A model generated the notes under the pieces. It searched no databases, was not told the origin of the DNA, and worked only from the letters and a program-made list of their open reading frames with translations. 64,000 bases of DNA from a virus: IMG/VR virus record IMGVR_UViG_3300045988_131721, positions 64,001-128,000 of that record; one strand, written 5' to 3'. Numbering within the stretch: position 1 is the first letter of the stretch; each line of letters opens with the position of its first letter. This document shows, in pieces, positions 7,293-54,173 of the stretch. Both the position numbers and the translations under genes were made by a program.

Positions 7293-7311
7293 CTATATAA
7301 GAGGTGATTAA
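7270..7311 (+). promoter_or_regulatory. 11-bp perfect inverted repeat pairing an anti-SD with the SD of the downstream gene
   Basis: TTAATCACCTC 7270-7280 and GAGGTGATTAA 7301-7311. The left arm lies in the promoter spacer and the right arm contains the SD. Confidence 0.8.
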
Positions 7312-7312
7312 T

Positions 7313-14815: not shown

Positions 14816-14822
14816 ATATAAT

Positions 14823-19185: not shown

Positions 19186-19204
19186 TTGATAAGGGGTGAA
19201 CAAT

Positions 19205-20966: not shown

Positions 20967-20980
20967 ATTAATCAACTCCT

Positions 20981-27672: not shown

Positions 27673-27755
27673 AAAATAGAAATAATTAAATTTTTGAATA
27701 ACAACATGGTTGTTTTTATAGACATTAATATTATGTGTTTTTTATTTAATTTAGA

Positions 27756-27779
27756 TACACAATATTTTTAAATTGTGTA
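27756..27779 (-). repeat. RBP junction motif, non-coding copy abutting the stop of 27780-29561
   Basis: Plus strand TACACAATATTTTTAAATTGTGTA. The stop codon is at 27780-27782. Confidence 0.85.
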
Positions 27780-29561
27780 TTACAAATTCTCTAAAAATTT
27801 CAAAATTTTCGGAGCTATTAGTTCTTGATGTGCTAAAGAGTTTGGATGAGTTTGGTCGTGAAAATATTTATCGGTGAAAGTTTTATTCCACACAAAAAGT
27901 CCACTTTCTCCATTTAAATCATAAACTTTTATAGAAAATCTCTTACCTATTTTTATCATTTCATCTGCAATTTTTCTAATATTATTATCATAATCATATC
28001 TATAAGTAGTGTTTGTTGGAGTTATAAGTGCTATCTTTGCGAATGGAAACTTTTTAGTTAGTTGTTCACAACAATAATGAATTGCCCCACAGACAGTATC
28101 TTTTGTAGTGTCACCACATTGACCTATACTAAAACTTCCACTATCATTTATACCTGCTAAAATTGTAATATAATCATATCCTTCATTTCCTGTCAAAGTG
28201 TCTATTCTATCACATATATTTTCACTTGCATTGTAAGTTTTTATAAATCCAGTACCAGCTTTTGCTTTATCAATAACGATTATCCCAGTTTCATCAGCAA
28301 TATAACTATGATACTTCCTTACACCCTCGCTCGAACTATCGCTTGTACTATCTCCTATTACGCACCACTTTTTGCCCTTTAATTTATTATCTACTCTTTT
28401 TAATTGTTCGGAAATATTTTTAGCATACTTTTCAGTTGAAAAATTTATACTTCCTTCTAAAGAATAAGAAACATATGATGTCGGTAATGTTCTACTCATT
28501 ATCATATAAGTATCTTTTAAATTCATGTTTAAAGACATTCTTAAAAATTTTGCTCTAGAAGGAGCAACCGCATTAGTAGTCCCGTATTCCTTTAATGAAA
28601 TATATTCTTTATTAGCATCGTACCATGCACCATTCCAATTATTTGTAAAGTAATAAGTTTTTCCACTCTCTACAGGAATGAAATCACTTATACAACCAAC
28701 ATCACTAGCTACAGGAGCACCATTAGTTTCAATTATATAATTATCGGTTGTTTTAGTTTTATCAAATAAGTTGTTATCATCTTCAATTTTCAGAAATGTT
28801 GTTTTATTCGGTGTAATATTATTATTTATAGTGTCTTTAATTTTTTCACTAAATTTAGTTGTAAACTCAATACTATATTCGCCAAAACCAACATAATTTT
28901 GTGGTAATACATTCCCTTCAACAAGCATTACTGTATCTATATTAAGCATATTAATATTTTGTCTATAAAATTTTGCATTTGCAGGTGATGTAAAAGTTGA
29001 TTCACCGTAAGGTTTATCTGATATATAAGTCTTTCCACTATCGAACCAAGCTCCACTCCAATTGCTAGAATAAGTATAAATTGTATTGCCTTTTACTGGT
29101 ATATAGTCGCTAATACAACCATTTGTATTTTCAACTAATTTATTTTTTTCTAAAATATAACCTTGATTTGAAATAGAATTTTTATTAAAAAGATTCATAA
29201 TTGATTTTTTAATAAATGTTAAATTGTTATAATCAACACAATCATTCATTAGTTTATCTTTTGAGATTGTATTATCTCCAACTATGGCATTTATGGACGC
29301 ATTACCGGCGATTTGTTGTAAAAATTCATCTGTCATATAAGTTTGGTCAAATTTGCCTAAATTCTTGTTAATTTGATATATTGAAATATCAGTTGTATTT
29401 TTATCAAGCTTTTCATTCGCAATATCTTTACATTGTGAATTTACCCCATCTAAATTTTCTCTTAATGTTTTACCATCTTCACATAATACATTATCATCAG
29501 TACTCCAAAACGAAACAATATTTCCATTCTCATCACTATATTTATTCTTCATATACTTCAT
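27780..29561 (-). CDS. tail fibre with tandem carbohydrate-binding-like repeats and a C-terminal SGNH/GDSL hydrolase
   Basis: 593 aa. Duplicated ~90-aa module (NGCISDYIPVKGNTIYTYSSNWSGAWFD... / VGCISDFIPVESGKTYYFTNNWNGAWYD...). SGNH blocks VIGDSTSD, AGINDS and DQTHPN. Confidence 0.75.
   Translation of the reverse strand: MKYMKNKYSDENGNIVSFWSTDDNVLCEDGKTLRENLDGVNSQCKDIANEKLDKNTTDISIYQINKNLGKFDQTYMTDEFLQQIAGNASINAIVGDNTISKDKLMNDCVDYNNLTFIKKSIMNLFNKNSISNQGYILEKNKLVENTNGCISDYIPVKGNTIYTYSSNWSGAWFDSGKTYISDKPYGESTFTSPANAKFYRQNINMLNIDTVMLVEGNVLPQNYVGFGEYSIEFTTKFSEKIKDTINNNITPNKTTFLKIEDDNNLFDKTKTTDNYIIETNGAPVASDVGCISDFIPVESGKTYYFTNNWNGAWYDANKEYISLKEYGTTNAVAPSRAKFLRMSLNMNLKDTYMIMSRTLPTSYVSYSLEGSINFSTEKYAKNISEQLKRVDNKLKGKKWCVIGDSTSDSSSEGVRKYHSYIADETGIIVIDKAKAGTGFIKTYNASENICDRIDTLTGNEGYDYITILAGINDSGSFSIGQCGDTTKDTVCGAIHYCCEQLTKKFPFAKIALITPTNTTYRYDYDNNIRKIADEMIKIGKRFSIKVYDLNGESGLFVWNKTFTDKYFHDQTHPNSLAHQELIAPKILKFLENL
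29416..29439 (-). repeat. RBP junction motif, coding copy (SQCKDIAN)
   Basis: Plus strand TTCGCAATATCTTTACATTGTGAA, inside 27780-29561. Confidence 0.85.
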
Positions 29562-29575
29562 TACTTCATACCTCC

Positions 29576-30817
29576 CTAATTTATATAACCCTCTTCAGAA
29601 GAAATTTTATTAAAAGGAATTTTTGTGATAGTTCCCGTTGTTCCTCCCGATGTGTCACCTTTAATCACAGGCACATTTTCATCATGTATTAAAGTATCTC
29701 CATACCAAACTTCATTTAAATAACTTAATTTTATTTGACATAATACATCTTTTTTTAATATTGGTTGAGTTCTCCATGCTATACTTGGAAATATTAGAAT
29801 TAAATTATCCACTGTCGGTCTAATAAATAAATTTAATTCCACAAATTCATCCATTTCTGGTAACACAATAGTTGATAATGTTTCTGTTTTTAAATATTGA
29901 TATTTATCACCTGTTAAATTTAATTTATCTTCATCATCGGTAATAACTACATTTAAATAATCTACTATTTGTTCTTTTTTATTTTTTATTTTATTGAATT
30001 TATATAATTTGAAATAATCTTCATTAAAACAACATAAACCATATGTATAAGTATCTGTATTACTTGTTATATATGTATAATTTCTATTACCATCTAAATA
30101 TATTATTTCAGTACTAGAATTAAAATCTTTTGCCCAACCCTTTAATATATAAGAACCTTTACTTAATTCTGATATTATTATAGGTGTATCTTCTGTACCC
30201 TTTTTAATTGTATAGCCTTTACTTTCTTCTAATTCTATTAATTTTGTTTTATGTTGTAATATTTCATCTCTGATTTCGCTAGTTGCTTGTTCTAATTTAT
30301 TCAATTTAGAATCGGTAATTACATCTCCAGATATCCAAATAGTTCTATTATAAGACCCATCGTCATTGAAAGTTTTTAATTCTTTTCCATATTTAGCAAC
30401 TTTTGTGTTATCTATTGCTGTTCCGTCAACTGTTCCATAAGATAAATCGTCGTCATCCACTTCACATTCTTCAACCGACATTATAAAATAAGGTAGCTTT
30501 ATTCTTCCACCTTTATCATCATAAATTCTAATATGAACATGATAATTTCCTATTTCGTCAATTTGATTCATTATTTCATTATTGATTGTAAATAATATTT
30601 TATTATCTATAATAGGTACTATATCTGATTTTATTTGTTTTTTTAGAGGGCTAACTAATACTATATCAGATAACAAATAATTAGAACTTAAATCTAAATA
30701 ATCAGTATCCATTAATTTAAAATATATGTCTACGCCTTTATCGTGTTGAAATATTGACAACTGACGATTTAAAATACTCTTTTGTTTATTGATAATTATT
30801 GAATATTCTTTTTTCAA
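29576..30817 (-). CDS. baseplate/fibre protein with a BppU-like N-terminus
   Basis: 413 aa. The N-terminus MKKEYSIIINKQKSILNRQLSIFQHDKGVDIYF is similar in pattern to 23150 and 51152. TTG start after GGAGG. Confidence 0.55.
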   Translation of the reverse strand: MKKEYSIIINKQKSILNRQLSIFQHDKGVDIYFKLMDTDYLDLSSNYLLSDIVLVSPLKKQIKSDIVPIIDNKILFTINNEIMNQIDEIGNYHVHIRIYDDKGGRIKLPYFIMSVEECEVDDDDLSYGTVDGTAIDNTKVAKYGKELKTFNDDGSYNRTIWISGDVITDSKLNKLEQATSEIRDEILQHKTKLIELEESKGYTIKKGTEDTPIIISELSKGSYILKGWAKDFNSSTEIIYLDGNRNYTYITSNTDTYTYGLCCFNEDYFKLYKFNKIKNKKEQIVDYLNVVITDDEDKLNLTGDKYQYLKTETLSTIVLPEMDEFVELNLFIRPTVDNLILIFPSIAWRTQPILKKDVLCQIKLSYLNEVWYGDTLIHDENVPVIKGDTSGGTTGTITKIPFNKISSEEGYIN

Positions 30818-30840
30818 AATTTTATACCTCCTTTTAATTA

Positions 30841-31086
30841 TTAAATATCTACTTCTAAATCATATTTAATCCAATTTATAAAATTTGATACATCCTCAAT
30901 ACCATATCCTTGTTCTAATGAATTTTCAGATAAAAATTCTTCCCTAATTAATCTACTTAGAAATAATCTAAATTCATCCTCTGATAAATTTAATAAATAT
31001 TTTTTAATATCTTCTTTTGAATGATTTATTCCACTATCTGTTGCTCCAGTATCATAAGCAAATTTTTCTAATATTTTATCTTTCAT
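30841..31086 (-). CDS. hypothetical protein
   Basis: 81-aa ORF with a GGAAGGAG SD. Confidence 0.6.
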   Translation of the reverse strand: MKDKILEKFAYDTGATDSGINHSKEDIKKYLLNLSEDEFRLFLSRLIREEFLSENSLEQGYGIEDVSNFINWIKYDLEVDI

Positions 31087-31101
31087 AATATAATCTCCTT
31101 C

Positions 31102-32628
31102 CTAAACATTTGTATTATTTTCAAGAGCATCTAATCTTGATTCTATGTTAGATAATCTTGAATTTATATTTCCTATTTTAGAATTTAAATCATTAACTTG
31201 ATTTTGAACTTCTAAGATTTTATCATTTAATCTTTTTTCAATTTGTTGTAAATTAACTTCACTTGTTGCTGAATTAATTAAATTTATACAGTTTAACATT
31301 TGTGAATTTAATTTATTTCTAGCTTCCCTATATAATGCTAATCTTATATTGAATTCTTTTCTCTCGTCTTTATTAAAAATTAAATCTTTCATATCTACTC
31401 GTATTGAATTAATGAAATTTGTATGTTTTGCTTTAAAATCATCAAAATATTCTTTTAATAGTTGTTTATTATTATCTCCTAATTTTTCATTATTATAGTA
31501 AGATTGATAACTAGCTTCTATTTTAGAAACATAATTAACCATTCCATTTGCTAAAGCGTCCAATGAATTATATTGTGCTACCGTTAATTTCCCATCCGTA
31601 TTCAACAATGACTTAGTTATAGGCAACATATCATTTGAGTACTTTTGATTTGCATCAAAGTATCCTTGAATAGTTTGTTGTTCTTTAGCAAATGAATTAA
31701 TTAGTGAAGCTTGTAATTCATTCATATTGTTAGATAAATCGTCTATTCTAGTATTTGTATTATAAACTTCATCTGATATAGTACTTGAAGCTCCTAATGT
31801 TTTTTCGCCTTCTGTAGAAATGGATAGAGTTGTACTACATGAATCTTTAAAAGAAGATAATGTTATCAATATCGTAGTTATATTAGATGTTATAGACGAA
31901 ATATCTACTAATGTTATATTTTCTCTATCATCTTCTGTGACGATTTTAATTTCTACAATTAAATCAGCCAGCATTTTTTGCAAAGATAGTTGATATTCTA
32001 AAAAAGATGTTGTGTCTACATCATTAGAATTTTCTGCCATCATATCAATTAAAGCATCACTATATCCAAGCATTTCTTCAAATTTATTATTGATTATGTC
32101 AAGTCTATAATTAACATCTGCTTTTTCTGCTGAATTAAATGTCTCATCGGAAAGTCTATCGGTTAATGTGGTCTTTAAATCTATCATTAAAGAATTGGAA
32201 TTTATTATTGCTGTATTTAATAATTCTTTAATTTGTTCAAATGATAAGTTTTCTTGATATTCTTTTGATAAATTCTCAATATTATCTTGAGTGATTTCAA
32301 GTTGTTTTTTATAAAATTTATTGTTCTCGTTCACTCCCTTTAATTTTTCTGATATTGATTTTTTGTCATATCCATCAAATAGCATATCTAATAAATCTGT
32401 TGTAGTTGTTACTCCTATGCCATCTATATTTTTAATAATAAATATTAAATTTTCCTCTTCATCTAATTTATTATTTGAGCTTACTAAATCAGAAGTTTCT
32501 ATCTTCCAATAAATATATTTATTACTGGTGTATAGATTATTTATTGGATATAATTTTTCTGAATATTTAATAACTAAATCTTTAATGTAAATATATTTTT
32601 GTGTGGGGCTATTATTTTCAATCGCCAT
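31102..32628 (-). CDS. coiled-coil tail/baseplate structural protein
   Basis: 508 aa. Long heptad-like regions ending in NDLNSKIGNINSRLSNIESRLDALE. Confidence 0.55.
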   Translation of the reverse strand: MAIENNSPTQKYIYIKDLVIKYSEKLYPINNLYTSNKYIYWKIETSDLVSSNNKLDEEENLIFIIKNIDGIGVTTTTDLLDMLFDGYDKKSISEKLKGVNENNKFYKKQLEITQDNIENLSKEYQENLSFEQIKELLNTAIINSNSLMIDLKTTLTDRLSDETFNSAEKADVNYRLDIINNKFEEMLGYSDALIDMMAENSNDVDTTSFLEYQLSLQKMLADLIVEIKIVTEDDRENITLVDISSITSNITTILITLSSFKDSCSTTLSISTEGEKTLGASSTISDEVYNTNTRIDDLSNNMNELQASLINSFAKEQQTIQGYFDANQKYSNDMLPITKSLLNTDGKLTVAQYNSLDALANGMVNYVSKIEASYQSYYNNEKLGDNNKQLLKEYFDDFKAKHTNFINSIRVDMKDLIFNKDERKEFNIRLALYREARNKLNSQMLNCINLINSATSEVNLQQIEKRLNDKILEVQNQVNDLNSKIGNINSRLSNIESRLDALENNTNV

Positions 32629-32678
32629 TTTTTCACCTTCTTTTAAAGAGGGATGTTATACCCTCTTTATTGATTATT

Positions 32679-36656: not shown

Positions 36657-36665
36657 ATCTATCAC

Positions 36666-37406: not shown

Positions 37407-37449
37407 TTACATCACCCTCCTTATAAAAGAGGGCTAATATATTAACCCT

Positions 37450-44595: not shown

Positions 44596-44616
44596 ATATT
44601 AATCTCACCTGCCTTT

Positions 44617-45060: not shown

Positions 45061-45517
45061 CTTTTTTCATTTCTTGTATTTCCTCTTCCAATTTTTCACA
45101 TTGTTTATTTAATATTTCTAATTTTTCAGCCTCTAATAATATTCTTTTGCTTAAAGTTAATGAAGTCATATTTGCTAATAGATTTTGTTTTTCTAACATT
45201 ACTTCTATAACAATTTCACTTACTATTTCGTCTACATCTTGTGCAATAAACATTAATTCTTTTTTACCTTTATTTATTGATTCTATTAAATCTTCGTCTA
45301 ATTCTAAATCAGTAGCCAATTCAAATGCTTCCTTGTATATAAGTTCCATTAATGCTTTTTCTTCTAATCCTTGTTCTAGTCCTTTAGATATTTTTTCTTT
45401 TAATTCATTTCTATTCTCACCAAATATATTATAAACTAAAACAGTTTCTATTTCGTTATTTACTTCCACATCATATGAACTTCTAATCATATCTAATGTT
45501 AAATCACTTAATTTCAT
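45053..45517 (-). CDS. putative tail assembly chaperone (acidic, helical)
   Basis: 154 aa, very acidic, lying upstream of the tape measure. The call rests on synteny. Confidence 0.5.
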   Translation of the reverse strand: MKLSDLTLDMIRSSYDVEVNNEIETVLVYNIFGENRNELKEKISKGLEQGLEEKALMELIYKEAFELATDLELDEDLIESINKGKKELMFIAQDVDEIVSEIVIEVMLEKQNLLANMTSLTLSKRILLEAEKLEILNKQCEKLEEEIQEMKKGD

Positions 45518-45587
45518 TCCTTAATCTCCCTTCTTTATTAATTATTTTTAATATCTTTCCTCTCTTTATTCATCTTTTCATACAACG

Positions 45588-45619
45588 AAATAGGAGAAGA
45601 AATTAATCCTCTCCTATTT
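45588..45619 (-). terminator. terminator-like hairpin closing the tail-spike island
   Basis: AAATAGGAGA, 12-nt loop, TCTCCTATTT (10-bp stem). There is no long U-tract beyond the stem. Confidence 0.45.
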
Positions 45620-45703
45620 CCACACATTATACAAATAGTAATTAGAGTTAATACACAGCTGGTTTTGTGTACGTTTATATTATATGATTTTTTTTAATTT
45701 ATA

Positions 45704-45727
45704 TACATAATATTTTTAAATAGATAT
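45704..45727 (-). repeat. RBP junction motif, degenerate copy spanning the stop of 45716-47443
   Basis: Plus strand TACATAATATTTTTAAATAGATAT. Only the central AATATTTTTAAAT and part of the left arm are conserved. Confidence 0.4.
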
Positions 45728-47443
45728 TACATTATTATAATATCTATAATCTTTTTCAGCATCTGTAAATTTTATATTTATATCACTATTATTTTCTATA
45801 CAGTTTATACAAGATATATTATTCAATATAATATCGGGTGTATATGAACCTGTGGTTACATATCCTATCATACTAGAAGTTCTTTTATTTCCAATATTTT
45901 CTATTATACCATTTGTCATTAAAAAATGAGGTGAATTAGTTTTCGTATACTTAACCCCGTTTTTTGCATTCCATCCAAAATGATATAAATTATTAACCAT
46001 TATTATACTATTATATAAATCTACAGAATATATATCTTCACTTATAATATTCATGCCATAATTATTAGTACCACTATAATCAATAATAGAATTAATAAAT
46101 TGTAATTTTTTACTCCCTGCAACTAATCTAAAAGTACAATATTTGTTAATTGAATTAAGTATTCTTAAGGAACATTTTTTAAATATTATAGAATTATTAA
46201 CATAAGAATAGTTTTGGGTTATTTTCTCAAAACTATCCAGGATGAAATTACAATCTATAAATTCACATTTTGAATTATCATTAAATTGTAATAATCTAGC
46301 ATATGTAGCATTATTACCAACAGCTTCTATATCACAGTTTATAAATCTACAATCAGATGAATTATGCAAATAAAATAAGGTACTTGTAATAATTCCATTT
46401 ATTTTAGTATTTTTTACAATTATATTATTTACGGCACCGTCATTAGACCCACATTTTATTATGTTTGACCCTGTACCATTCATACGTAAATCGTTATTAT
46501 CAATTACTACATTATTACTATTGTATCCTAAATATATAGCATGACCATATATATCTGTATTAGTTTGAGTTGTAATTTTTGTATTTAATATTTTTAAATT
46601 ATTACAATTGTCACTATATATACCAAAATACGCTTCATCTATAACTAAATCAGATAAAATTGTATTATCTGCTTTCATATTAGAGACAAGAAAACTTAAG
46701 TTTTTTGATTTACAGTTTTTTACGCAATTATTTAAAATTTTATTAGTTGTATTACTCACTATTGTTATTCCACAAATATTAGACACTATCGCACTTGCGT
46801 CAAATTCTTTTAATGTATTTTTATATTCTAATTGACTGTAAAAATTTAATTCTTCTATACAGCAATTATCATTATTTATTGCAAATACTGTAAAACTTGT
46901 TTCCTTTGGATTTATATATATATTTGCTCCATTTCCTATAATCTTTGTATTTTTAGGTAGTATAATAGTATTATCTATTAAATAATTACCCTTTTCAAAA
47001 ATTATTACTACATTTTCTTTATTATCTAATGTGGCTTTTATTTTATCAGAACAATCTGATAAATTATAAGTTTTAGTAGTTTCATCATAACTAACTTGAC
47101 TGGATGGTTTCACTCCAAATTTTGATAAATTGATATAAAGTTTATTTATTCCATCTATCTCATTCACAATATCTTTATATTGTGCATTAACTTCATTTAT
47201 ACTGCCTATTAATGTTTTATCCTGTGTAGTTAGTGTATCATACTCATTGTCTTTTACACCTTCCATAGATGTCTCGTCTTTAACTAAGGTTACTTCATTA
47301 TCTTTTAAGGTTTGAATATCTGTTTTCATATTATTATTTTTTGTAGTTTGACTCTCTCCTGTACTGTCTACAACTAAATCTGGTGAGGTATAAGGATAAT
47401 TAAATCCGTCTTTACCTTTTCTAGTTTTTATATTTTTTGACAT
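45716..47443 (-). CDS. tail spike, conserved N-anchor + right-handed beta-helix (pectate-lyase-like) body
   Basis: The ATG at 47443 (MSKNIKTRKGKDGFNYPYTSPDLV...) lies 8 nt after GAGGTGA; the track GTG at 47455 sits inside the SD. The body has repetitive N/I/C-rich beta-helix-like repeats. Confidence 0.7.
   Translation of the reverse strand: MSKNIKTRKGKDGFNYPYTSPDLVVDSTGESQTTKNNNMKTDIQTLKDNEVTLVKDETSMEGVKDNEYDTLTTQDKTLIGSINEVNAQYKDIVNEIDGINKLYINLSKFGVKPSSQVSYDETTKTYNLSDCSDKIKATLDNKENVVIIFEKGNYLIDNTIILPKNTKIIGNGANIYINPKETSFTVFAINNDNCCIEELNFYSQLEYKNTLKEFDASAIVSNICGITIVSNTTNKILNNCVKNCKSKNLSFLVSNMKADNTILSDLVIDEAYFGIYSDNCNNLKILNTKITTQTNTDIYGHAIYLGYNSNNVVIDNNDLRMNGTGSNIIKCGSNDGAVNNIIVKNTKINGIITSTLFYLHNSSDCRFINCDIEAVGNNATYARLLQFNDNSKCEFIDCNFILDSFEKITQNYSYVNNSIIFKKCSLRILNSINKYCTFRLVAGSKKLQFINSIIDYSGTNNYGMNIISEDIYSVDLYNSIIMVNNLYHFGWNAKNGVKYTKTNSPHFLMTNGIIENIGNKRTSSMIGYVTTGSYTPDIILNNISCINCIENNSDINIKFTDAEKDYRYYNNVISI
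47163..47186 (-). repeat. RBP junction motif, coding copy (AQYKDIVN)
   Basis: Plus strand TTCACAATATCTTTATATTGTGCA. Confidence 0.85.
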
Positions 47444-47496
47444 TTTTTTTATCACCTCATTTTTAATTTTTTATTATGCAATTAATTCACATTAAG

Positions 47497-47520
47497 TTCA
47501 CAATATTTTTAAATTGTGAA
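47497..47520 (-). repeat. RBP junction motif, non-coding copy abutting the stop of 47521-49149
   Basis: Plus strand TTCACAATATTTTTAAATTGTGAA. With flanks, GTTCACAAT/ATTGTGAAC forms a 9-bp stem. The stop is at 47521-47523. Confidence 0.85.
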
Positions 47521-49149
47521 CTAAATTTCTATATTATTAAAATTCCAAATGATATTATCTCCATATGTTGTTCCTATGTTAAAAGGGATTCCTTTAATAT
47601 AACTGTTATATGCTACAACTGCATCAGTTTTTGCACTGAATACCATTTTTGTACAACCACTTTTATTCGTAGTCCAATTATTTTTAAATATTCTATAATT
47701 TTCACTATCTACCCTAAAATCTAAAGTTGTATCTTGAAATTCATTATTAAACATTGCAATATTTCTACTTTTTACAGATATTACTTGTTTAACTTGCCCG
47801 TTATTACAAATAAATTTACAATTTTTAACTATATGACCGTGAATATGTTGCCCCCCATCTTCCCAGTCTATATGTGACGCAGGGTCATAATAACCGCAAT
47901 TTACAAATTCACAACCGTCTAATATTATATTATTACCACCTTGAGGACTCATACCAGTAGACATAGTTTCTTGAAATTTACAATTTTTAAATGTAACATC
48001 TTCCAACTTACCAACTGCAAAAATGTGTACAATACCACCAAAATCGGGGTCACTCGCAGTAGGAAGGTAGTTTTGATAAAACTCTATTTTACAATATTTT
48101 GCGGTAGAAGGAAATTCATAATATTCAAATTGTAAACAATTATTAAGTTTAGAAACGAATTGTTTATTTTCATCGAAGAAATATATATTATATATTCTGC
48201 CAACAACATAGGCATATCCGCCATAACCTTGCATACAACCTACACCAAATGTGTTAGTATTATAATTATGTAAAGAAGAAATGTCTATATAATCCTTACA
48301 TCTAAACCTAGTTGAAATACTATCATTATTTTTACCAATATCTGTATACCCACCCATTTCAGTATTACTCAATTTAAAAGGTATACGTGTATATAATTTA
48401 TATCCTAATCCAACATTAAAACCAGGAGAATATGAAAATTCACAATTCACAATATTAACATTTTTACTTCCAGTAAGTTCTAAAGTTTGTTCCTGTTCAA
48501 TATGATATTTTTTACTACTTATATAATTCTCGGCATAAAATTTACCATTTAAAACATTTAAATTTTCAATATTTTCAATATTAAACATTTTATATGCATA
48601 TTCATTACCTGCTCTAATACCATGCCAATCCGCTATGTTTTTATTTTTTCTAAATTCTAATTGTATAATAGAATTATTCCAATCAATTGTCATATTACTT
48701 GGATAAGAAATACTTCCCACATCGCCTTGAACATTATAAGTTCCAGTAGGGAAAACAACTTTATCATAATTATTTTCTGACGCATATTTAAAAACATTTA
48801 TAATACCTTGTGTATTAGCTATACCACTATCACTTTTACCAGTATTATTTAAATTGTAAGTATTTAAATCAACATTCAACACTTTTAAATTATCCGAATT
48901 TATATCGGGACGTTCTACCACATTTATTTCTATTTGTTTTGAAATATTTTGTCCTACATATTTTACAGTTATTGTGGCTGTTCCAATAGAATTTGCAAAG
49001 AGCACACCAAATTGACAAGATATAACAGAAGTATTAGAGGATGTTATAGAAACACTATTATTATCACACCTCATATCCCATTTAAAAGGATTTTCTGATT
49101 CATCTTGCAATCCTACTGCCCATAAAACATATTCATCACCAATATACAT
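47521..49149 (-). CDS. tail spike / depolymerase-like protein (Big_2-like N-terminus + pectate-lyase-like beta-helix), lacking the N-anchor
   Basis: 542 aa. KVVFPTGTYNVQG...NMTIDWNNSIIQL is typical of pectate_lyase_3-type spikes. No recognisable SD before the ATG at 49149. Confidence 0.65.
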   Translation of the reverse strand: MYIGDEYVLWAVGLQDESENPFKWDMRCDNNSVSITSSNTSVISCQFGVLFANSIGTATITVKYVGQNISKQIEINVVERPDINSDNLKVLNVDLNTYNLNNTGKSDSGIANTQGIINVFKYASENNYDKVVFPTGTYNVQGDVGSISYPSNMTIDWNNSIIQLEFRKNKNIADWHGIRAGNEYAYKMFNIENIENLNVLNGKFYAENYISSKKYHIEQEQTLELTGSKNVNIVNCEFSYSPGFNVGLGYKLYTRIPFKLSNTEMGGYTDIGKNNDSISTRFRCKDYIDISSLHNYNTNTFGVGCMQGYGGYAYVVGRIYNIYFFDENKQFVSKLNNCLQFEYYEFPSTAKYCKIEFYQNYLPTASDPDFGGIVHIFAVGKLEDVTFKNCKFQETMSTGMSPQGGNNIILDGCEFVNCGYYDPASHIDWEDGGQHIHGHIVKNCKFICNNGQVKQVISVKSRNIAMFNNEFQDTTLDFRVDSENYRIFKNNWTTNKSGCTKMVFSAKTDAVVAYNSYIKGIPFNIGTTYGDNIIWNFNNIEI

Positions 49150-49217
49150 TTGAGATATAGGGTTAACTATTAATATTTCATTGATGTTCCTATTCTGTTT
49201 TTTTGCTAACTCTTTAG

Positions 49218-51137
49218 TTAGAGATACTCCTCATCTGTACTAGAAATTTCTTTACCTACTACCACAGGAATGGTTTTAGTAAGATTCTTTGCAACAATAT
49301 TAACATTAGAAGTACCATCTTTTAATGCAGTAATACTATTATCATCATTAATTTTTATTATATCGTCAGTATTTGTTTTTTCTAAAGATACACTATCTGA
49401 ATAATTTATTACTGGTGATGTAGAATATGGTATAGAATATGTTTCACCAACACCCATATTCAATGCATCTATTGAATTTACACTTTCAACATTTAACGCC
49501 TCAAATATAACATCTGTAGTATAACTATTTCCAACGTTTGTGGTTTTTATAGTTACAGTAAATTCTTTATCTGACAATCTTGTTACATTTCCAAGACTAT
49601 CTATTGTTGCATTATTTTTATCACATATAAACTCTATATCATAAAAAGACTTATCTCCAAAAGGTAATGTAACAGGATGTAATAAAACAGTAGAATTAAC
49701 AGCTATATTATATGAAGTAACCTTAATTTCATTACTATCAGTAAGAAAGTTTCCATCAACTTTATAATTTCCTATACCAGTAATAGAATTATCACAATAT
49801 GGAGTAAAAGTATATTTTTTATTATTAACAATTATAAAACCGTTAATAGCATTTTTATATAATGGTTGAATATTATAAACCCAAGTATAATTATTTGTTT
49901 TTTGAAAACCTAATTTAATGAATTTAGTTCCTTCTTTAAGGCACATAGAACGTTTCTTTTCATTCCAAGGTAGATAAACAACATTATATCTATCACCAGT
50001 AATAGCCCCCAATGATTTTTTATTTTCATCATAACAAATAATTGATAAAACAAATCCCTTATATCCCGCAGATATAACAATTTCTTCTGAATTAACTTCA
50101 ATATATTCACTTGTAGAACAAGATGTAGTTACACTATTACCATAAGAAAAATCTACTTGGGTAGCGTGCGACCTTTGTAAAGTTAAAACATTACCATCTA
50201 TAATAGTTTCATTTTGTATACTTGCCCCATTTGCATTTATAATTATATCTCCAGTAACAGAATTAATTGTAGCTGTTCTCTCATATTTATCATAAACTTC
50301 ATTAGTAATATCTTTACCACCCATACTAATAGAAAGTGTATTTGGTTCATACTCCAAAATAGGTTCTAATTTAGCTACATATTTAGTATTTGGAGTAATA
50401 GACTTATTAGTATTACTATTTGTATAATTAGTTAAATTGTTTGTTATAGAATAACTTGTAGGTTGAACAATTTCTGTACATTTTACGGTTATAACAATTT
50501 TACCGGTAACTTTAGGTATATTAATATTTCCATTATTATACACACTATCGGTAATATTTGTACCACCCATAGTAATAGTAACACTATTAATAGAATATCC
50601 TTCACTAGCAGTAATAGTTGCAGTATAAGATTGATTCTCCTCTATTTCGGTTGCGTTATTATTATTACTTGCATTAGATAGTGTATTTGTTATAGTATAT
50701 TTTGTTACGACAGGTTCAACAGGTGTAGTACCTCCAATAGGTATTTCTGCTATTACTTTGTTTCCACACTTTATTTTATAAGAATTAGTGGTTTGTTCTG
50801 TGGTAAATAAGTTCGCAATATCTTTATATTGCGAATTAACTTCATTAATAGAACCTATTAATGTTTTATCCTGTGTAGTTAATGAGGGATATTCGTTATC
50901 TTTTATTCCCTCCATAGATGTTTCATCTTCAATTAAATTTATTGCATTATCTTTTAAAGTTTGAATATCAGCTTTTATTGCAGTAGTATCTGAGCTATTT
51001 TTAGCTTCTTCTATTTTCTTTTCTAGTTCTTGTTTAGCACTTTTGCCAGTTCCGTCATAGTCAACATTCTCTAAATCAACTAATTTAAAGTCGCCATTAT
51101 TCTTTTGAGTAAGTTTTCCTATTATTTCAATACCCAT
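49218..51137 (-). CDS. tail fibre: conserved N-anchor, two tandem Ig-like modules, C-terminal Big_2-like domain
   Basis: 639 aa. The anchor ...DIQTLKDN...DETSMEGIKDNEY..LTTQDKTLIGSINEVNSQYKDIAN is shared with 45716-47443. Its ~75-aa modules are similar to one in 23150-25429. Confidence 0.7.
   Translation of the reverse strand: MGIEIIGKLTQKNNGDFKLVDLENVDYDGTGKSAKQELEKKIEEAKNSSDTTAIKADIQTLKDNAINLIEDETSMEGIKDNEYPSLTTQDKTLIGSINEVNSQYKDIANLFTTEQTTNSYKIKCGNKVIAEIPIGGTTPVEPVVTKYTITNTLSNASNNNNATEIEENQSYTATITASEGYSINSVTITMGGTNITDSVYNNGNINIPKVTGKIVITVKCTEIVQPTSYSITNNLTNYTNSNTNKSITPNTKYVAKLEPILEYEPNTLSISMGGKDITNEVYDKYERTATINSVTGDIIINANGASIQNETIIDGNVLTLQRSHATQVDFSYGNSVTTSCSTSEYIEVNSEEIVISAGYKGFVLSIICYDENKKSLGAITGDRYNVVYLPWNEKKRSMCLKEGTKFIKLGFQKTNNYTWVYNIQPLYKNAINGFIIVNNKKYTFTPYCDNSITGIGNYKVDGNFLTDSNEIKVTSYNIAVNSTVLLHPVTLPFGDKSFYDIEFICDKNNATIDSLGNVTRLSDKEFTVTIKTTNVGNSYTTDVIFEALNVESVNSIDALNMGVGETYSIPYSTSPVINYSDSVSLEKTNTDDIIKINDDNSITALKDGTSNVNIVAKNLTKTIPVVVGKEISSTDEEYL
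50812..50835 (-). repeat. RBP junction motif, coding copy (SQYKDIAN)
   Basis: Plus strand TTCGCAATATCTTTATATTGCGAA, with perfect 8-bp arms. Confidence 0.85.
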
Positions 51138-51151
51138 ACTATTTACCTCCT

Positions 51152-52450
51152 TTATTTTATAGTTATATTAGTAGTCCCTAAATTTGCATTATCTGATTTA
51201 TATATATCATAGTTTTCCGCATAGTTATCGCTGTTAGTAAAGTTTACAGTTGCCACCTTGCTAAATCCTCCGTCAAAACCACCAACGTTGAAACTACAAG
51301 TACCTAATCTACTAGGAACACAATAGAATATATATTCTCCAGCTCCTGCATTTACTGTTATGGTTCTATTCTTTGAATTAGATAATTGTTTTGTTAATCC
51401 ACTAATCAAAACACTATCATAAGTTGTTGTAGTAGATTTTCCATAGTAAACACCATTAGCAAATGTAATAGTAGCAGTCTTTGATTTTTGAACACCACTA
51501 TTAGATATTCCAGCTAAAGTATAAGTAGTTGTTGTAGTAACTGCTGTGAATGTTTTCGTTCTTAATGTATTCTCAACAGTTGCATTATTAATAGTTTGAC
51601 TTTTTATTGTACTATGGGTATAGTTCCATGTTAATTTAGGACTAACAGTACTACCCATTTGTGATATATTTGGTGTTACTGAAAAGGATGAAATATCAAA
51701 AGGATTTTGTATATCCCATATTTTAGCATCAAGTTCAATTTGACTCTCTTGTACTTTCTTTATTTTATTATTTACTTCATTTATCCCACCAGTAATTGTT
51801 TTTTCGTCGGTATTTAAAAATTCATCATTTTTCTTTTGATAATTTGTTAAATCTACAGTTCCTCCACCGATTCCAGAATTAACATCTTCTCTTAACTGAT
51901 TTATTGCACCTACTATAGTTTTGTTATCACCAACTAAATTTTCATCTCGTTTCATCTGAATTTCATTTTTATTTATTCCGTTGGTTATTTCTTTAACATC
52001 TTTTATTAATTTTTCTAATATAGGTAGATTTTTATCATTTTTTATTTTTTTATTTAACTTAGCAGTTATATTTGGTTTAACTACATAATCAAATTCTTCA
52101 GATGTAAAACATTTTAATTCATTTTCTATTGTTCCAGAAACTCTTATTTCACATGAATATTTACCAACTATATCAAAATAATCTGTAGTTAAATCAACTT
52201 GATATAATAAATCTTCTTTAGATATTAATGTTGCGTCTAAAGGTTTAAATTCATCTGTCTCTGGTTTTAATACTGCAAATTCAACGATTAAATCATCTGG
52301 TATGGTTTTATCTTCATCAGTACAAATTAATTTTATAAAAATATTACATATATTTAAATCTGTATTATAGAAAAATATAGTTTTATCGGATTTAACTTTT
52401 GTATTTTTTAAATCTACGGTAATTAAATAATCTTTATCTATATTAATCAT
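51152..52450 (-). CDS. baseplate/fibre protein with a BppU-like N-terminus
   Basis: 432 aa. The N-terminal pattern is like 23150 and 29576. Contains TIVGAINQL and TITGGINEVNNKI segments related to the anchor motif. Confidence 0.55.
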   Translation of the reverse strand: MINIDKDYLITVDLKNTKVKSDKTIFFYNTDLNICNIFIKLICTDEDKTIPDDLIVEFAVLKPETDEFKPLDATLISKEDLLYQVDLTTDYFDIVGKYSCEIRVSGTIENELKCFTSEEFDYVVKPNITAKLNKKIKNDKNLPILEKLIKDVKEITNGINKNEIQMKRDENLVGDNKTIVGAINQLREDVNSGIGGGTVDLTNYQKKNDEFLNTDEKTITGGINEVNNKIKKVQESQIELDAKIWDIQNPFDISSFSVTPNISQMGSTVSPKLTWNYTHSTIKSQTINNATVENTLRTKTFTAVTTTTTYTLAGISNSGVQKSKTATITFANGVYYGKSTTTTYDSVLISGLTKQLSNSKNRTITVNAGAGEYIFYCVPSRLGTCSFNVGGFDGGFSKVATVNFTNSDNYAENYDIYKSDNANLGTTNITIK

Positions 52451-52477
52451 TTAATCATCCTCCTTTATTAATTTTTA

Positions 52478-52509
52478 TATAAAAAGAGTGGTAAATTAAC
52501 ACCACTCTT
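52478..52509 (-). terminator. rho-independent terminator
   Basis: Minus sense: AAGAGTGGT, 8-nt loop, ACCACTCTT, then TTTATAT. Confidence 0.7.
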
Positions 52510-52531
52510 ACAATTTCATTTCGATACTAAG

Positions 52532-52555
52532 TACACAATATTTTTAAATTGCGAA
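52532..52555 (-). repeat. RBP junction motif, non-coding copy abutting the stop of 52557-54173
   Basis: Plus strand TACACAATATTTTTAAATTGCGAA. It matches the coding copy at 54031-54054 at 22 of 24 positions. Confidence 0.9.
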
Positions 52556-52556
52556 C

Positions 52557-54173
52557 TTAAGACAATAAAATAAAATCATTACTCGCTATTCCTGTTTCAG
52601 AAATTCTTAAATATATTTTTTTATCACAACAAACTAGATTTCCAATTTTACTCCCAACTGTATTTGGTAATTCATTAACTTTACCAACATTAACAAAATT
52701 ATTAATTATTGTAAAACTTCCTTCATCTGTAATTTTACCACTTCTATTTCCAATATTCATTGATGTATATTCTGAATTACTTCTTATTCTATGTGTCATA
52801 GCTCCATTACTTGCACAAGTAACTTTAGTTCCTTTGCAATAATTGATATCTATTCCCGTACCACCATCACAATTTATATAACCTATTATAGTATCCTCTA
52901 CTTTGCTTTCTGTTCCATTACTTAAATCTTCTATTTTTATTCCACATCCTGTAATATTTGTTGCGTATATTTTTCTAATCTCATTTGCTACAGGATGACC
53001 CGTATTGGTAGATTGTAATACGATTATATTTCTTGCATCTTTAGCACTTTCTGTTGTATCATCATTATCTGTTCCCGTTAGATATTGAATACAGTCAAAA
53101 ATATTATTTTTACAATTTCCTTTTACACTTATACAATCTTGATTATCATTTATGACCCTTTCTAAAACAACATCTCTAAATCTATTTCCTATTATTTGCA
53201 TTTTATTTCCATCTAATATAATATGTCTAGTCTTTATAAAAGCTATATGAAGATAGTCAAAATACAGTTGACCAACTTCTCTTTTTTGATTACTTCCCCC
53301 AACAACTAATCCATAATCACAATACTGTATATCAACTTTTCCATTGAATATTAATCTAGCAGTACCTCTAATTTCAATTCCAGTTGTAAAATAATTATCT
53401 GTATTATTTACACCTCTTATTGTTATTCCAAGTGGAAATAATATATTTTCGGGTTTTTCTACATCATCTATTAACAATCCCGCTGAAACAATCCCATCAC
53501 AACTTAATTCCCCATACATATTTATTATAGCTTGGTTGCATTTATCATCTAAAACCCAAGGTTCAGTTAATTTCCACACCCACCAATTTATATCATTATC
53601 ACTTAATTGTTTTGCCCCCTCTTGATTAGGGTATGGTTTAGGCACAATAAGCTCATAGTTTCTCCAACTTTCCAATGTTTGTTTTATTTTATTCCATTTT
53701 ATATTAAAACTATCACCAGAATACCAACTTAAAACAATTGGAGTGGAAGATAGATGGATATCTGCAATACCCTCACCATCAAAAATAGTATAATTTCCAG
53801 CAAAAATTTTTCCATTTATTATAACTTTTTTATTAGTAGCAATTTTTATTTTAGCACCCATATTAAATTTAAAAGATATATTGGAAGGGATTGTAATAGT
53901 TTCGCTTATCAAATAAGTTCCTTTTGGTAAAGTTACCAAAATTTCATCTGAAAACTTATTTATTATATTTTCAAGAACTTTACTATTATCTAAACCGTTT
54001 TTATCCCCACCATAGTCAATAAAATTTAGATTCACAATATCTTTAAATTGCGAATCAATTTCTTCAAATTTCTTTGTATTTGATTTTCCGTTTTTATCTA
54101 TAACTAAATCTGGGGAAGTGTATGGATAAGAGTAACCATCATTCCCTTCTCTGACTTTCACTTTATCGCCCAT
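52557..54173 (-). CDS. tail spike, short N-anchor + pectate-lyase-like beta-helix body
   Basis: 538 aa. The N-terminus GNDGYSYPYTSPDLVIDKNGKS matches 45716-47443. DYGGDKNGLDNSKVLENII...LPKGTYLISETITIPSN is typical of pectate_lyase_3 spikes. Confidence 0.7.
   Translation of the reverse strand: MGDKVKVREGNDGYSYPYTSPDLVIDKNGKSNTKKFEEIDSQFKDIVNLNFIDYGGDKNGLDNSKVLENIINKFSDEILVTLPKGTYLISETITIPSNISFKFNMGAKIKIATNKKVIINGKIFAGNYTIFDGEGIADIHLSSTPIVLSWYSGDSFNIKWNKIKQTLESWRNYELIVPKPYPNQEGAKQLSDNDINWWVWKLTEPWVLDDKCNQAIINMYGELSCDGIVSAGLLIDDVEKPENILFPLGITIRGVNNTDNYFTTGIEIRGTARLIFNGKVDIQYCDYGLVVGGSNQKREVGQLYFDYLHIAFIKTRHIILDGNKMQIIGNRFRDVVLERVINDNQDCISVKGNCKNNIFDCIQYLTGTDNDDTTESAKDARNIIVLQSTNTGHPVANEIRKIYATNITGCGIKIEDLSNGTESKVEDTIIGYINCDGGTGIDINYCKGTKVTCASNGAMTHRIRSNSEYTSMNIGNRSGKITDEGSFTIINNFVNVGKVNELPNTVGSKIGNLVCCDKKIYLRISETGIASNDFILLS
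54031..54054 (-). repeat. RBP junction motif, coding copy (SQFKDIVN)
   Basis: Plus strand TTCACAATATCTTTAAATTGCGAA. Confidence 0.9.

Follow-up and report, generated by a model that had tools for sequence, protein, structure and literature searches.

A paired sequence motif as a candidate joint for receptor-binding modules in human-gut Clostridium phages

The fibre genes of the viral DNA stretch analysed here (64,000 nt, hereafter the window) carry a 24-nt quasi-palindrome where a conserved N-terminal anchor gives way to a divergent body, and near-identical copies lie next to the stop codons. This raises the question of what these repeated copies do. The first-pass annotation had proposed that the motif marks a junction at which the bodies that bind receptors are exchanged in the form of cassettes, and this core reading was supported by the location of the copies, the breakpoints, the transferred modules and the deletion products described below.

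Two classes of motif copies at the fibre cassettes

A pattern search recovered exactly the seven copies reported before (C1 to C4, N1, N2 and N4 in Table 1), with 0-2 mismatches and all in a single orientation (plus strand), compared with a chance expectation of 0.00 (100 shuffles). Within the window, the motif was confined to fibre genes or their 3' side. The four coding copies were found at the anchor/body border of the minus-strand genes 27780-29561, 45716-47455, 49218-51137 and 52557-54173 (ORF calls), and three non-coding copies begin 0-1 nt past a stop codon. One further, degenerate copy (N3) was confirmed across the stop of gene 3. The gene described as anchor-less and SD-less indeed has neither the motif nor a Shine-Dalgarno sequence upstream. 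The motif itself had no description in the literature searched.

Table 1. Joints, genes and terminator-like hairpin of the fibre cassettes in the window, with the limits of similarity to relatives
Feature	Position	Strand	Description	Comparison with relatives
Coding joint C1	54031..54054	-	TTCGCAATTTAAAGATATTGTGAA, SQFKDIVN; end of 40-aa anchor of gene 52557-54173	Backbone alignments of L042, L078, L072, L039, L070, L031, L013 and L023 terminate at 54027-54040
Fibre/spike gene 1	52557..54173	-	538 aa; ORF call	Module between C1 and N1 without DNA match to any relative compared
Non-coding joint N1	52528..52559 (core 52532-52555)	-	1 nt past stop codon 52557-59	Alignments of relatives resume at 52555-52568
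Intrinsic terminator-like hairpin	52484..52509	-	22 nt downstream of N1	
Coding joint C2	50812..50835	-	TTCGCAATATAAAGATATTGCGAA, SQYKDIAN; perfect 10-4-10 palindrome	L065 and L031 alignments stop at 50812
Fibre gene 2	49218..51137	-	639 aa; anchor extends to C2	
Anchor-less beta-helix gene	47521..49149	-	542 aa; within cassette 2 (C2 to N2); weak Beta_helix match	76.7% identity to L007, match ending at the L007 N copy
Non-coding joint N2	47493..47524 (core 47497-47520)	-	Abuts stop codon 47521-23 directly	
Coding joint C3	47163..47186	-	TGCACAATATAAAGATATTGTGAA, AQYKDIVN	L027 match at 97.6% begins at 47187, next to C3
Fibre gene 3	45716..47455	-	579 aa; pectate-lyase-like	Module common to a different phage, L027, at 97.6% identity
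Degenerate non-coding joint N3	45704..45727	-	Spans gene 3 stop; hybrid site	Left half, end of L027-type gene; right half, resident N copy; join in TTTAAAAATATT core
Coding joint C4	29416..29439	-	TTCACAATGTAAAGATATTGCGAA, SQCKDIAN	L012 alignment stops at 29413
SGNH/GDSL fibre gene	27780..29561	-	593 aa	
Non-coding joint N4	27752..27783 (core 27756-27779)	-	Abuts stop codon 27780-82 directly	L012, L096, L068 and L053 alignments resume at 27775-27777

The coding (C) class reads TTCGCAAT-(T/A/G)TAAAGAT-ATTGCGAA, gives the product SQ(Y/F/C)KDIAN and forms a palindrome of up to 10-4-10. The non-coding (N) class reads (TTAG)TWCGCAAT-TTAAAAAT-ATTGYGWA(CTAA). In the wider population, the N-copy logo revealed a 32-nt dyad, TTAG-TWCGCAAT-TTAAAAAT-ATTGYGWA-CTAA, with a 12-8-12 layout, the spacer of this set being fixed beforehand by the search pattern. 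Among N copies reached from the C side, the spacer was TTAAAAAT in 15 of 17. It is asymmetric and not self-complementary, and the symmetric extension TTAG...CTAA is conserved in N copies and absent from C copies. The two classes are told apart by position 14, which is G in 132/138 coding copies and A in 132/136 non-coding copies. No coding constraint keeps the A of the N copies in place, and C and N thus behave as separate, non-mixing classes. As had been claimed, 2 of the 24 positions distinguish copy 54031 from copy 52532, and in the junction frame the non-coding copies still read (S/T)QFKNIV(N/Y). The self-complementary arms were also present, measuring 8-10 bp instead of the 7-9 bp given before.

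Conservation of the C copies acts at the nucleotide level, not at the amino-acid level. Their codons TCG, GCG or GTG, and ATT account in this phage for 2.9%, 7.7%, 9.1% and 37%, respectively, of the codons in their families, and the bases adjoining the variable codon 3 (Y, F or C) are invariant. Both this codon use and the fixed bases around codon 3 point to selection on the DNA.

Our evidence base consists of assembled metagenomic contigs, together with the Clostridium isolate genome L100 and the window. Among IMG/VR stretches, 99 contained the N pattern and 108 the C pattern; the N pattern also occurred in 111 stretches of human-gut metagenomes. The carriers are phages of about 40 kb and of about 135 kb, with unrelated phage types of a single host genus sharing the motif. 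About 90% of the copies were paired as C...N with a spacing of 1.2-3.4 kb. In two sets of 47 non-coding copies each, 43 and 42 had a coding copy at most 4.5 kb upstream, and a search starting from coding copies found an N copy with 1-2 mismatches downstream in 17 of 23 further loci. The pairs were direct repeats in all of about 290 loci, and the same pattern was seen across different samples, in L100 and in the window. For 43% of the N copies, a long ORF ended within 12 nt. Their downstream contexts were highly diverse (holin, endolysin, another fibre, tail genes) and, therefore, no neighbouring gene is conserved.

Modules are exchanged and deleted at the motif

Mosaic breakpoints coincided with the motif, with 27% of 4554 similarity end-points falling within the 2% of sequence that surrounds its copies. 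The same module of 2-3.3 kb was found in 14 locus pairs at 88-100% identity (96.7-100% in nine of them) while both flanks were unrelated, and identity switched within the motif at both ends. The modules of L047/L098 (3289 nt) and L066/L078 (2340 nt) were 100% identical between unrelated flanks, with the corresponding values for L005/L057 and L041/L060 being 99.9% and 99.7%. The converse case, a different module between the same flanks, was observed in 29 pairs. The slot of fibre gene 1 held six unrelated modules among seven backbones, whose 300-nt flanks were 83-100% identical upstream and 89-100% downstream. In four of the seven, the window included, these values were 100% and 94-99%, respectively.

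In comparisons with close relatives, similarity broke off at the motif in each of the four window cassettes (Table 1); at least one fibre-region breakpoint lay about 96 nt away from a relative's C copy. Left-arm variants of the motif were linked to the left flank and right-arm variants to the right flank. The crossovers mapped to motif positions 10-20, which is also the longest invariant run. In the hybrid site N3, the left arm of the partner matches 3 of 8 bases only.

Deletion products, which the first-pass annotation had proposed to look for, were found as complete anchors fused straight to a non-coding copy. Such module-less anchors occur in L083, L084, L063 and L006, and relic anchors and partial copies were also seen (e.g., in L006, L103 and a small ORF of L027). 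Circular or reciprocal junctions were not seen among the fetched loci. Copy pairing, module exchange, module deletion and the location of the crossovers inside the motif are thus direct observations. Because modules are transferred, backbones are turned over, the window cassettes break at the motif and module-less anchors exist, sequence comparison supports the view that the motif acts as an exchange site.

Homology, enzyme or expression

The explanation that we favour, and regard as somewhat probable, is that the motif serves a large population of human-gut Clostridium phages as a universal joint, at which receptor-binding modules are exchanged by homology-guided recombination. Such a module comprises the distal portion of a fibre or spike gene, in some cases accompanied by a helper gene and a terminator, and every exchangeable module is bracketed by two near-identical direct copies: the C copy as the last eight codons of any N-terminal anchor in use and the N copy after the module. 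When two phages meet, typically an infecting phage and a resident prophage or two co-infecting phages, two crossovers (C x C and N x N) would replace the module at exact boundaries and in the correct reading frame, irrespective of the anchors and of the genes downstream. A C x N crossover within one genome would delete it. General or phage-encoded homologous recombination may provide the crossovers, through single-strand-annealing proteins or RecA and RecU-type resolution, with the 24-32 nt of identity presumably serving as the minimal pairing segment. The joints would be maintained since new host specificities can be acquired or spread by those lineages and modules in which they are preserved.

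Homology-guided exchange agrees with the findings that a conserved sequence marks the constant/variable border, that homology recurs past the variable part and that breakpoints fall in both. The minimal efficient pairing segment is 23-27 bp for Red-beta and 31-34 bp for RecA (quoted in PMC3945230). The conserved block of 24-32 nt is close to this length, which gives circumstantial support, as do the RecT/Bet-like gene of L017, a motif-bearing 40-kb phage, and the RecU of the window. The clustering of crossovers in the centre is predicted by homology, since the centre is the longest invariant run, and by a fixed strand-exchange point alike. Against homology-guided exchange, dyad symmetry would be unneeded, yet the N copies form a 12-8-12 palindrome and the C copies one of up to 10-4-10. 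The separate behaviour of C and N at position 14 also counts against it, as do the turnover of a single slot, very fast for 24-32 nt of homology, the origin of the evidence in assembled metagenomic contigs, and the failure to identify an annealing protein in the window, which covers about half of the genome.

Alternatively, the joints could be recognition sites of a dedicated sequence-specific enzyme encoded outside the window or by the host, such as a recombinase of the tyrosine or serine type or a dimeric nuclease that makes a break at the joint. We consider this unlikely, although several features of the motif would suit it. The N site, with its inverted 12-nt arms and invariant asymmetric 8-nt spacer, has the core layout of loxP, FRT and dif, and the independence of the variable arm positions fits protein-read half-sites better than a hairpin. 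C and N would be a heterospecific pair (spacers TAAAGAT vs. TAAAAAT). As in engineered recombinase-mediated cassette exchange, this would favour exchange of like sites between different genomes over excision. The near-perfect class split, the central crossovers and the very fast module turnover point in the same direction, and a host-encoded factor would fit the occurrence of the motif across phage types that are unrelated but share a host genus. However, a candidate enzyme was not found, as the scanned window ORFs contained no site-specific recombinase (resolvase, invertase or integrase domains). The earlier statement that the window encodes no recombinase holds in this sense, but RecU and six homing-endonuclease-like ORFs are encoded. 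The latter lie far from the fibres, and homing-type endonucleases usually target their own insertion locus. No gene is conserved beside the cassettes; in L017, a phage integrase lies 3.4 kb away in the lysogeny module, and the genes around the cassettes vary by locus. A dedicated enzyme also sits poorly with the formation of hybrid N3 from such a divergent left arm, with the breakpoint about 96 nt off a C copy, and with the failure to see circular or reciprocal junctions among the fetched loci.

A role mainly in expression (3' stabiliser, translational pause at the domain border or regulator site), with recombination as a by-product, seems quite improbable to us. Each copy does fold as a hairpin (-6.8 to -11.4 kcal/mol, z-scores of -3.9 to -5.8), which could be of RNA or single-stranded DNA. 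The N copies lie in 3' untranslated regions, many of them close to a long-ORF stop, and 118 unique non-coding sites had a terminator-like hairpin within 130 nt downstream in 38% and within 90 nt upstream in 20%. Nevertheless, covariation was absent at every variable arm pair, mismatched combinations occurring at the frequency expected under independence. The commonest state at positions 2/23 of N copies was T/T (65/130), and 20/130 had A/C at positions 4/21; the motif is conserved in sequence, not in structure. In addition, the copies have no T tail and distinct terminators stand after or before them. A terminator within about 110 nt had been claimed for three cases and was clear for 52484-52509, but not for the others. 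Its location 22 nt past N1 speaks against a promoter. The bases past the motif differ between flank families, hence there is no conserved -10 element, and a common promoter or operator role is unlikely because the downstream contexts are unrelated.

It is highly improbable that the non-coding copies are decaying relics of junction-coding sequence, left by fibre-gene duplication or deletion and without a role of their own: the junction frame still gives SQFKNI(A/V)(N/Y) and relic anchors and partial copies exist (L006, L103, the L027 small ORF), but N copies reached from the C side show 1-2 mismatches only and keep the spacer in 15/17 without exact-N selection, their TTAG...CTAA extension is missing in coding copies, and recent exchanges have their right-hand breakpoint exactly at these copies.

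Comparison with known systems

The PeSL of T4-type phages are composite units of a strong sigma-70-type early promoter and a stem-loop terminator that bracket whole non-essential ORFs in hyperplastic regions, and their exchange is ascribed to homologous recombination (Arbiol et al. 2010, PMC2839356; Comeau et al. 2014, PMC4122927). Like PeSL, the motif is a short conserved direct repeat that flanks variable genes and coincides with the breakpoints of insertions, deletions and replacements, PeSL being non-coding. In contrast to PeSL, one motif copy of each pair falls within a gene, where two protein domains meet, and what is carried is the part of a structural protein that binds the receptor; moreover, unrelated phage types share the motif. 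Recombination between neighbouring PeSL copies is also associated with mini-circles; for the motif, module-less anchors were seen and no circular contig. A PeSL-type composite of promoter and terminator was ruled out by the missing T tail, the separate terminators and the lack of a conserved -10 element.

For T-even tail-fibre adhesins, a His-box model of recombination is said to go back to Tetart et al. 1998. The glycine-rich motifs of T-even gp38 are conserved stretches between constant and hypervariable parts, proposed to ease specificity interchange (Trojet et al. 2011, PMC3157838). In both systems a conserved stretch of a fibre or adhesin gene parts constant from hypervariable sequence. 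However, the adhesin motifs are coding, several per domain and structural elements of the protein, with neither a non-coding twin past the stop, nor dyad symmetry, nor whole-fold exchange between unrelated anchors.

CDI/Rhs polymorphic toxins combine a constant N-terminal delivery part with a highly variable C-terminal toxin part, which is replaced by recombination with stand-alone cassettes (Zhang et al. 2012, PMC3482391). They resemble the present case in that a variable C-terminal part is diversified by cassette recombination at a conserved junction. In contrast to the phage motif, they are cellular, have silent orphan cassettes in the same locus and share homology in the coding pre-toxin region only. 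We know of no paired downstream non-coding site in polymorphic toxin systems.

The Gin/Cin/Hin/Min and shufflon sites are quasi-palindromic and lie within fibre or pilin genes, where the constant N-terminal part meets the alternative C-terminal ones. As inverted repeats of a single genome with a dedicated serine or tyrosine recombinase next to them, they serve to switch resident alternatives by inversion. The motif shares their location, symmetry and approximate length, whereas its copies are direct and the alternative modules reside in other genomes. An inversion site was rejected on the single orientation in the window and the direct C...N pairs of the wider set, and an integron attC, which has a conserved fold and variable sequence, on the near-invariant sequence and the absence of covariation. 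Neither was an integron with IntI, attI and cassette promoter recognised, no integrase being present in the scanned window ORFs; the cassettes are expressed as the 3' part of a resident gene. The analogy to Gin/Cin/Hin or attC drawn by the first-pass annotation was not supported as a mechanism, given the direct repeats, the lack of a site-specific recombinase in those ORFs and the conservation of sequence and not structure.

In loxP/lox-variant and FRT/F3 cassette exchange and in the pdif modules of Acinetobacter plasmids, the cassette lies between two similar, non-identical sites with inverted arms and an asymmetric spacer and is swapped between replicons. Core-type tyrosine-recombinase sites have 11-13 bp inverted arms and a 6-8 bp asymmetric spacer, a layout that the 12-8-12 N copies share; a cognate recombinase was not found in the window, and the motif does not appear to match the conserved XerD-arm sequence.

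In contrast to PeSL, the element is neither promoter nor terminator, and it pairs a coding copy with a non-coding twin after the module, which the T-even adhesin motifs lack. If homology-guided exchange is the correct explanation, such joints would let phage lineages acquire, and modules spread, new host specificities.

Copies of the motif and their two classes

A pattern search of the 64-kb window returned seven copies of the degenerate 24-mer with 0-2 mismatches, against a chance expectation of none, together with an eighth, degenerate copy. The seven copies are all on the plus strand and the genes of the fibre region on the minus strand. Four are coding joints (C) at the border between the anchor and the receptor-binding body of a fibre gene, and the others are non-coding twins (N) following a module. 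The coordinates, orientation and reading-frame remarks of the first-pass annotation were all correct on recheck, as was its count of 2 differences in 24 positions between two of the copies.

Motif copies and other features of the window, with the points where alignments to window relatives (backbone 94-98% identical) halt or resume
Feature	Window position	Setting	Relatives' alignments
C1	54031	gene 52557-54173	halt at 54027-54040
N1	52532	starts 0-1 nt past the stop of minus-strand gene 52557-54173	resume at 52555-52568
C2	50812	gene 49218-51137; perfect 10-4-10 palindrome	halt at 50812
N2	47497	starts 0-1 nt past the stop of minus-strand gene 47521-49149	
C3	47163	gene 45716-47455	
N3	45704	degenerate copy across the stop of gene 45716-47455	resume at 45721, inside N3
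C4	29416	gene 27780-29561	halt at 29413
N4	27756	starts 0-1 nt past the stop of minus-strand gene 27780-29561	resume at 27775-27777
All coding copies		N-terminal anchor end of four fibre/spike genes; minus-strand readings SQCKDIAN, AQYKDIVN, SQYKDIAN, SQFKDIVN	
Homing-endonuclease-like ORFs	908-1690, 6461-7237, 9796-10578, 15620-16342, 19196-19984 (+), 62111-63103 (-)	six, free-standing	
DNA methyltransferase, DndB-like and DUF1599 genes	5890-6456, 7304-8428, 14802-15545	early region; DUF1599 is 'nucleotide modification associated'	
Endolysin-type genes	20136-20975, 25842-27611	one Amidase_2, the other SH3_3 + GH25	

The motif is real, highly non-random and widespread. With TWCRCAATTTAAAAATATTGYGWA as search pattern, the N form was found in 99 IMG/VR stretches, 111 metagenome stretches (human gut for the most part) and 4 stretches of Clostridium genomes, and the C form, with spacer (T/A/G)TAAAGAT, in 108 IMG/VR stretches. 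Motif-bearing contigs are of two sizes, ~40 kb and ~135 kb; the larger ones are window relatives, and locus L017 belongs to a 40-kb temperate phage with integrase, holin and amidase. The logo of 93 unique N copies revealed added conservation (TTAG upstream of the motif, C-T-(A/T)-A downstream), so that the N copy is a dyad of 32 nt in which an asymmetric 8-nt spacer separates arms of 12 nt. Of 138 copies that run on into an open frame, 132 have G at position 14; of 136 that do not, 132 have A there.

Counting solely N copies with enough upstream sequence, an equally oriented C copy lay at most 4.5 kb upstream for 43/47 N copies from IMG/VR and 42/47 from metagenomes. An N copy with 1-2 mismatches was present within 4.5 kb downstream of 17 of the 23 further C copies. 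The N copy directly adjoins the stop codon of a long ORF in about 43% of cases, and in the others a small ORF and/or a terminator intervenes; the bracketed unit thus comprises the distal part of the fibre and anything that moves along with it. Many short metagenome contigs stop within ~130 nt of an N copy (L186, L187, L196, L205, L215, L229, L230, L243, L246, L254 and L259), as expected if alternative joint neighbours co-exist in a sample and break the assembly graph.

The codons of the coding copies include TCG (2.9% of Ser codons in this phage), GCG or GTG (7.7% and 9.1%) and ATT (37%, versus 58% for ATA). Their third codon is TAT, TTT or TGT (Y, F, C), with the adjacent bases fixed. Judged from the sequences, selection on the motif acts at the DNA level.

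Megablast searches of the fibre region against cultured phages and of the structural region against plasmids gave no match; this phage lacks a close relative in culture, and a capsid-like protein is 38-42% identical to that of phiCD211-type 130-kb C. difficile phages. A BLAST search of cultured phages with the 32-nt N consensus was likewise negative, low-complexity masking being the probable cause. The C consensus retrieved solely one faecal contig and, in C. perfringens phage CPQ4, a degenerate copy past a stop codon, and a protein search with the 40-aa anchor retrieved metagenomic proteins alone, with the match confined to the anchor. The CPQ4 copy (MZ401006, locus L179, 6005-6035) is of the G type (TTCTTAATTGAAAGATATTGCGAActaa), directly follows the stop codon of a 720-aa gene whose annotation is 'pre-neck/exonuclease' and ties the motif to a cultured C. 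perfringens phage. The motif appears almost absent from cultured phages, with this copy as sole trace.

Module exchange at the motif copies

The first-pass annotation had proposed that receptor-binding modules are exchanged at the copies and had raised the question whether mosaic breakpoints coincide with them. When the oriented loci were compared all against all, 1224 of the 4554 similarity end-points did fall inside the 105-nt windows at motif copies, which make up 2% of the compared sequence. Among 66 C..N cassettes, 14 pairs had a common module between unrelated 300-nt flanks and 29 pairs had both flanks in common around unrelated modules, with identity turning on or off within the motif. 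Some modules are identical or nearly so (L047/L098, 3289 nt, 100%; L066/L078, 2340 nt, 100%; L005/L057, 99.9%; L040/L057, 99.8%; L041/L060, 99.7%) in different contigs and in part different samples. In recent pairs, the C copies differ at positions 2, 4, 8 or 9 and the N copies at positions 21 or 23, indicating that a module carries its proximal arm along and leaves the distal arm with the flank. Linkage analysis of the full set of sites agreed with this assignment of both arms.

Within the window, the C1-N1 slot is occupied by six mutually unrelated modules in seven backbones, whose 300-nt flanks are 83-100% identical upstream and 89-100% downstream (100% and 94-99% in four of them, the window included). 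Gene 45716-47455 and L027, which is from a different, smaller phage, have modules 97.6% identical, the match spanning 47187 to 45709, that is, C3 into N3. The N3 copy is of hybrid origin: the L027-type gene contributes its natural end (...ATATCTATTTAAAAATATTG...) as the left half and a resident N copy the right half, with the join inside the TTTAAAAATATT core.

Some loci carry anchors without modules. In L083 and L084, complete 40-aa anchors with ribosome-binding site and start codon continue directly as an N-type copy followed by the non-coding sequence usually found downstream (in L083 reading MSKNIKTRKGKDGFNYPYTSPDLVIDENGKSATTKFEEIDSQFKNIAYLVLRYGGV up to the stop). L063 has the same arrangement with a frameshift, and L006 and L027 hold anchor fragments. 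A C-by-N deletion junction would read anchor-TTCGCAAT-TTAAAAAT-downstream, and these anchors and fragments are what such a crossover is expected to produce.

The comparative data consist throughout of assembled contigs. Chimeras at the repeat are an unlikely artefact, because the joint repeat is shorter than the usual final assembly k-mers and the same architecture recurs in different samples, in an isolate genome and in the window. Breakpoints, shared modules and window cassettes give independent comparative support to the exchange-site reading, and we regard the C and N copies as established crossover points of module exchange and deletion.

Several further observations concern the flanks. 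L027 also has, at 9700-9830, a 37-codon ORF (MAKYITEYNGVQFMDKTGREKIKQLDTQFKNIANLFI, then stop) whose end is an N-type copy; it appears to be another module-less anchor, of an anchor family absent from the window. The downstream flank family cttagttttgcgatatggtggagtataaaggtacaccatttaaaaatt (L103 7355-7433; also L015, L030, L061, L067, L083 and L089) includes another, incomplete motif (TACACCATTTAAAAAT); the L103 version is of the G type and precedes a short module relic, which resembles the nested remnants of older events. Gene 51152-52450 (432 aa), which separates cassettes 1 and 2, has fibre-like 'AINQL' and 'GINEVNNKIKKV' stretches and no joint; its homologues in L039, L042 and L023 have a C copy ~780-920 nt past their N copy. 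Similarity between L042 and the window stops 96 nt short of the L042 C copy (~107 nt in L039), a breakpoint off the motif. The anchor-less beta-helix gene 47521-49149, inside cassette 2 (C2-N2), lacks a discernible ribosome-binding site and starts 68 nt past the stop of 49218-51137; it shares 76.7% identity with L007 as far as the N copy of L007. In seven other loci (L015, L061, L067, L074, L083, L089 and L100), on contigs of 17-70 kb where known, L100 being from a Clostridium isolate genome, the N copy is followed after ~70 nt by a gene that has 93% DNA identity to window 30803-31105 (ORF 30841-31086, 81 aa). This match is further mosaicism with loci of other contigs.

Possible mechanisms

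Scans of ~55 ORFs of the window, which is half of the phage genome, with Pfam and PHROGs identified no site-specific recombinase, in line with the first-pass annotation; RecU is present. No conserved gene lies beside the cassettes, whose neighbours vary from locus to locus. The other matches were DNA polymerase, NrdD/G, ThyX, dUTPase, a methyltransferase, a DndB-like protein, two endolysins, Dit and the six homing-endonuclease-like ORFs. Five of the latter are phrog_953 paralogues ('HNH endonuclease') with no Pfam match, dispersed among replication and nucleotide-metabolism genes, and the sixth (phrog_559) lies within the head module. At the position corresponding to window 58334-58367, L042 has an added insert of 1.6 kb and L078 one of 1.3 kb. 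The methyltransferase, DndB-like and DUF1599 genes hint at DNA modification by this phage. Seven other motif-bearing loci, on contigs of 6-54 kb where known, have genes with 67-83% DNA identity to the window amidase 1-5 kb downstream of their N copies.

With modest confidence, we favour crossovers by homologous recombination on a minimal identity block. The conserved 24-32 nt block matches the minimal efficient pairing segment of 23-27 bp for Red-beta and 31-34 bp for RecA (PMC3945230), phages of this group have RecT/Bet-like or RecU genes, the event that formed the N3 hybrid used a partner with a poor left arm, and the scanned ORFs include no candidate enzyme. The joints would persist because modules and lineages keeping them alone take part in exchange.

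Homologous recombination does not readily account for the dyad symmetry, the turnover speed and the strict division into G14 and A14 classes. These three features keep alive, as a minor possibility, a site-specific enzyme using C and N as a heterospecific pair, although none of the ~55 window ORFs is a candidate for acting on these sites. Unlikely in our estimate is a natural counterpart of recombinase-mediated cassette exchange. Here, a hypothetical host- or phage-encoded site-specific recombinase or nuclease would read the heterospecific dyad sites C (xTAAAGAT, in the gene) and N (TTAAAAAT, after the module) and allow unrelated Clostridium phages to trade receptor-binding modules in frame, the spacer difference suppressing self-excision. 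Integron-like circle insertion, which predicts tandem N-module-N arrays or a motif ahead of the anchor-less gene 47521-49149, was rejected, since the spacer 49150-49217 ahead of that gene has no motif and the loci examined showed neither circular contigs nor reciprocal junctions.

An expression role of the motif is very unlikely. The copies are foldable at -6.8 to -11.4 kcal/mol, but the paired fraction equals the independence expectation at 2/23, 4/21, 9/16 and four flanking pairs, and this absence of covariation at every variable pair rules out a selected hairpin. A terminator or 3' hairpin is further contradicted by the lack of a T tail and by separate terminators nearby, and a promoter by downstream bases that vary among flank families and by a terminator 22 nt after N1; TTCACA, 17 nt, TATAAA is present in just one flank family. 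We know of no convincing match to a CRP-like or dif-like site. That the N copies are mere relics is scarcely credible.

Significance and comparison with known systems

It has long been asked how phages swap receptor-binding modules so that the boundaries are exact and in frame; one view invokes illegitimate recombination and subsequent selection, the other recombination at conserved linker sequences. The present system is an unusually clean case for the linker view: one short sequence is the joint for several unrelated anchors and for modules of unrelated folds, and a non-coding twin sets the other end of the module. Exchanges are recent, as modules 100% identical attest, and cross between ~40-kb phages, at least one of them temperate (L017), and large ~135-kb phages. 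For re-targeting phages of the genus Clostridium, to which C. perfringens belongs, the joints provide a ready natural standard: one would cut at C and N and paste in any module of the metagenomic catalogue. Should the sites be read by a dedicated enzyme, they would define a new class of system for diversifying host range.

The papers searched contained no description of the motif. The likeness to Gin/Cin/Hin sites or integron attC suggested by the first-pass annotation did not hold, as the orientation and nearby recombinase that define invertase systems and shufflons, and the nearby recombinase and structure-based sites that define integrons, are lacking here. In T-even adhesins (PMC3157838), exchange at conserved motifs has a coding junction as here, but no non-coding twin. 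Toxin-domain replacement in polymorphic toxin systems (PMC3482391) likewise has a coding junction and is not known to have a non-coding twin. The closest known system is that of the PeSL cassettes of T4-type phages (PMC2839356, PMC4122927), in which homologous recombination shuffles modules at conserved direct repeats, although PeSLs are promoter-terminator units around whole accessory genes. The motif system is conserved-sequence modular shuffling, in a new variant.
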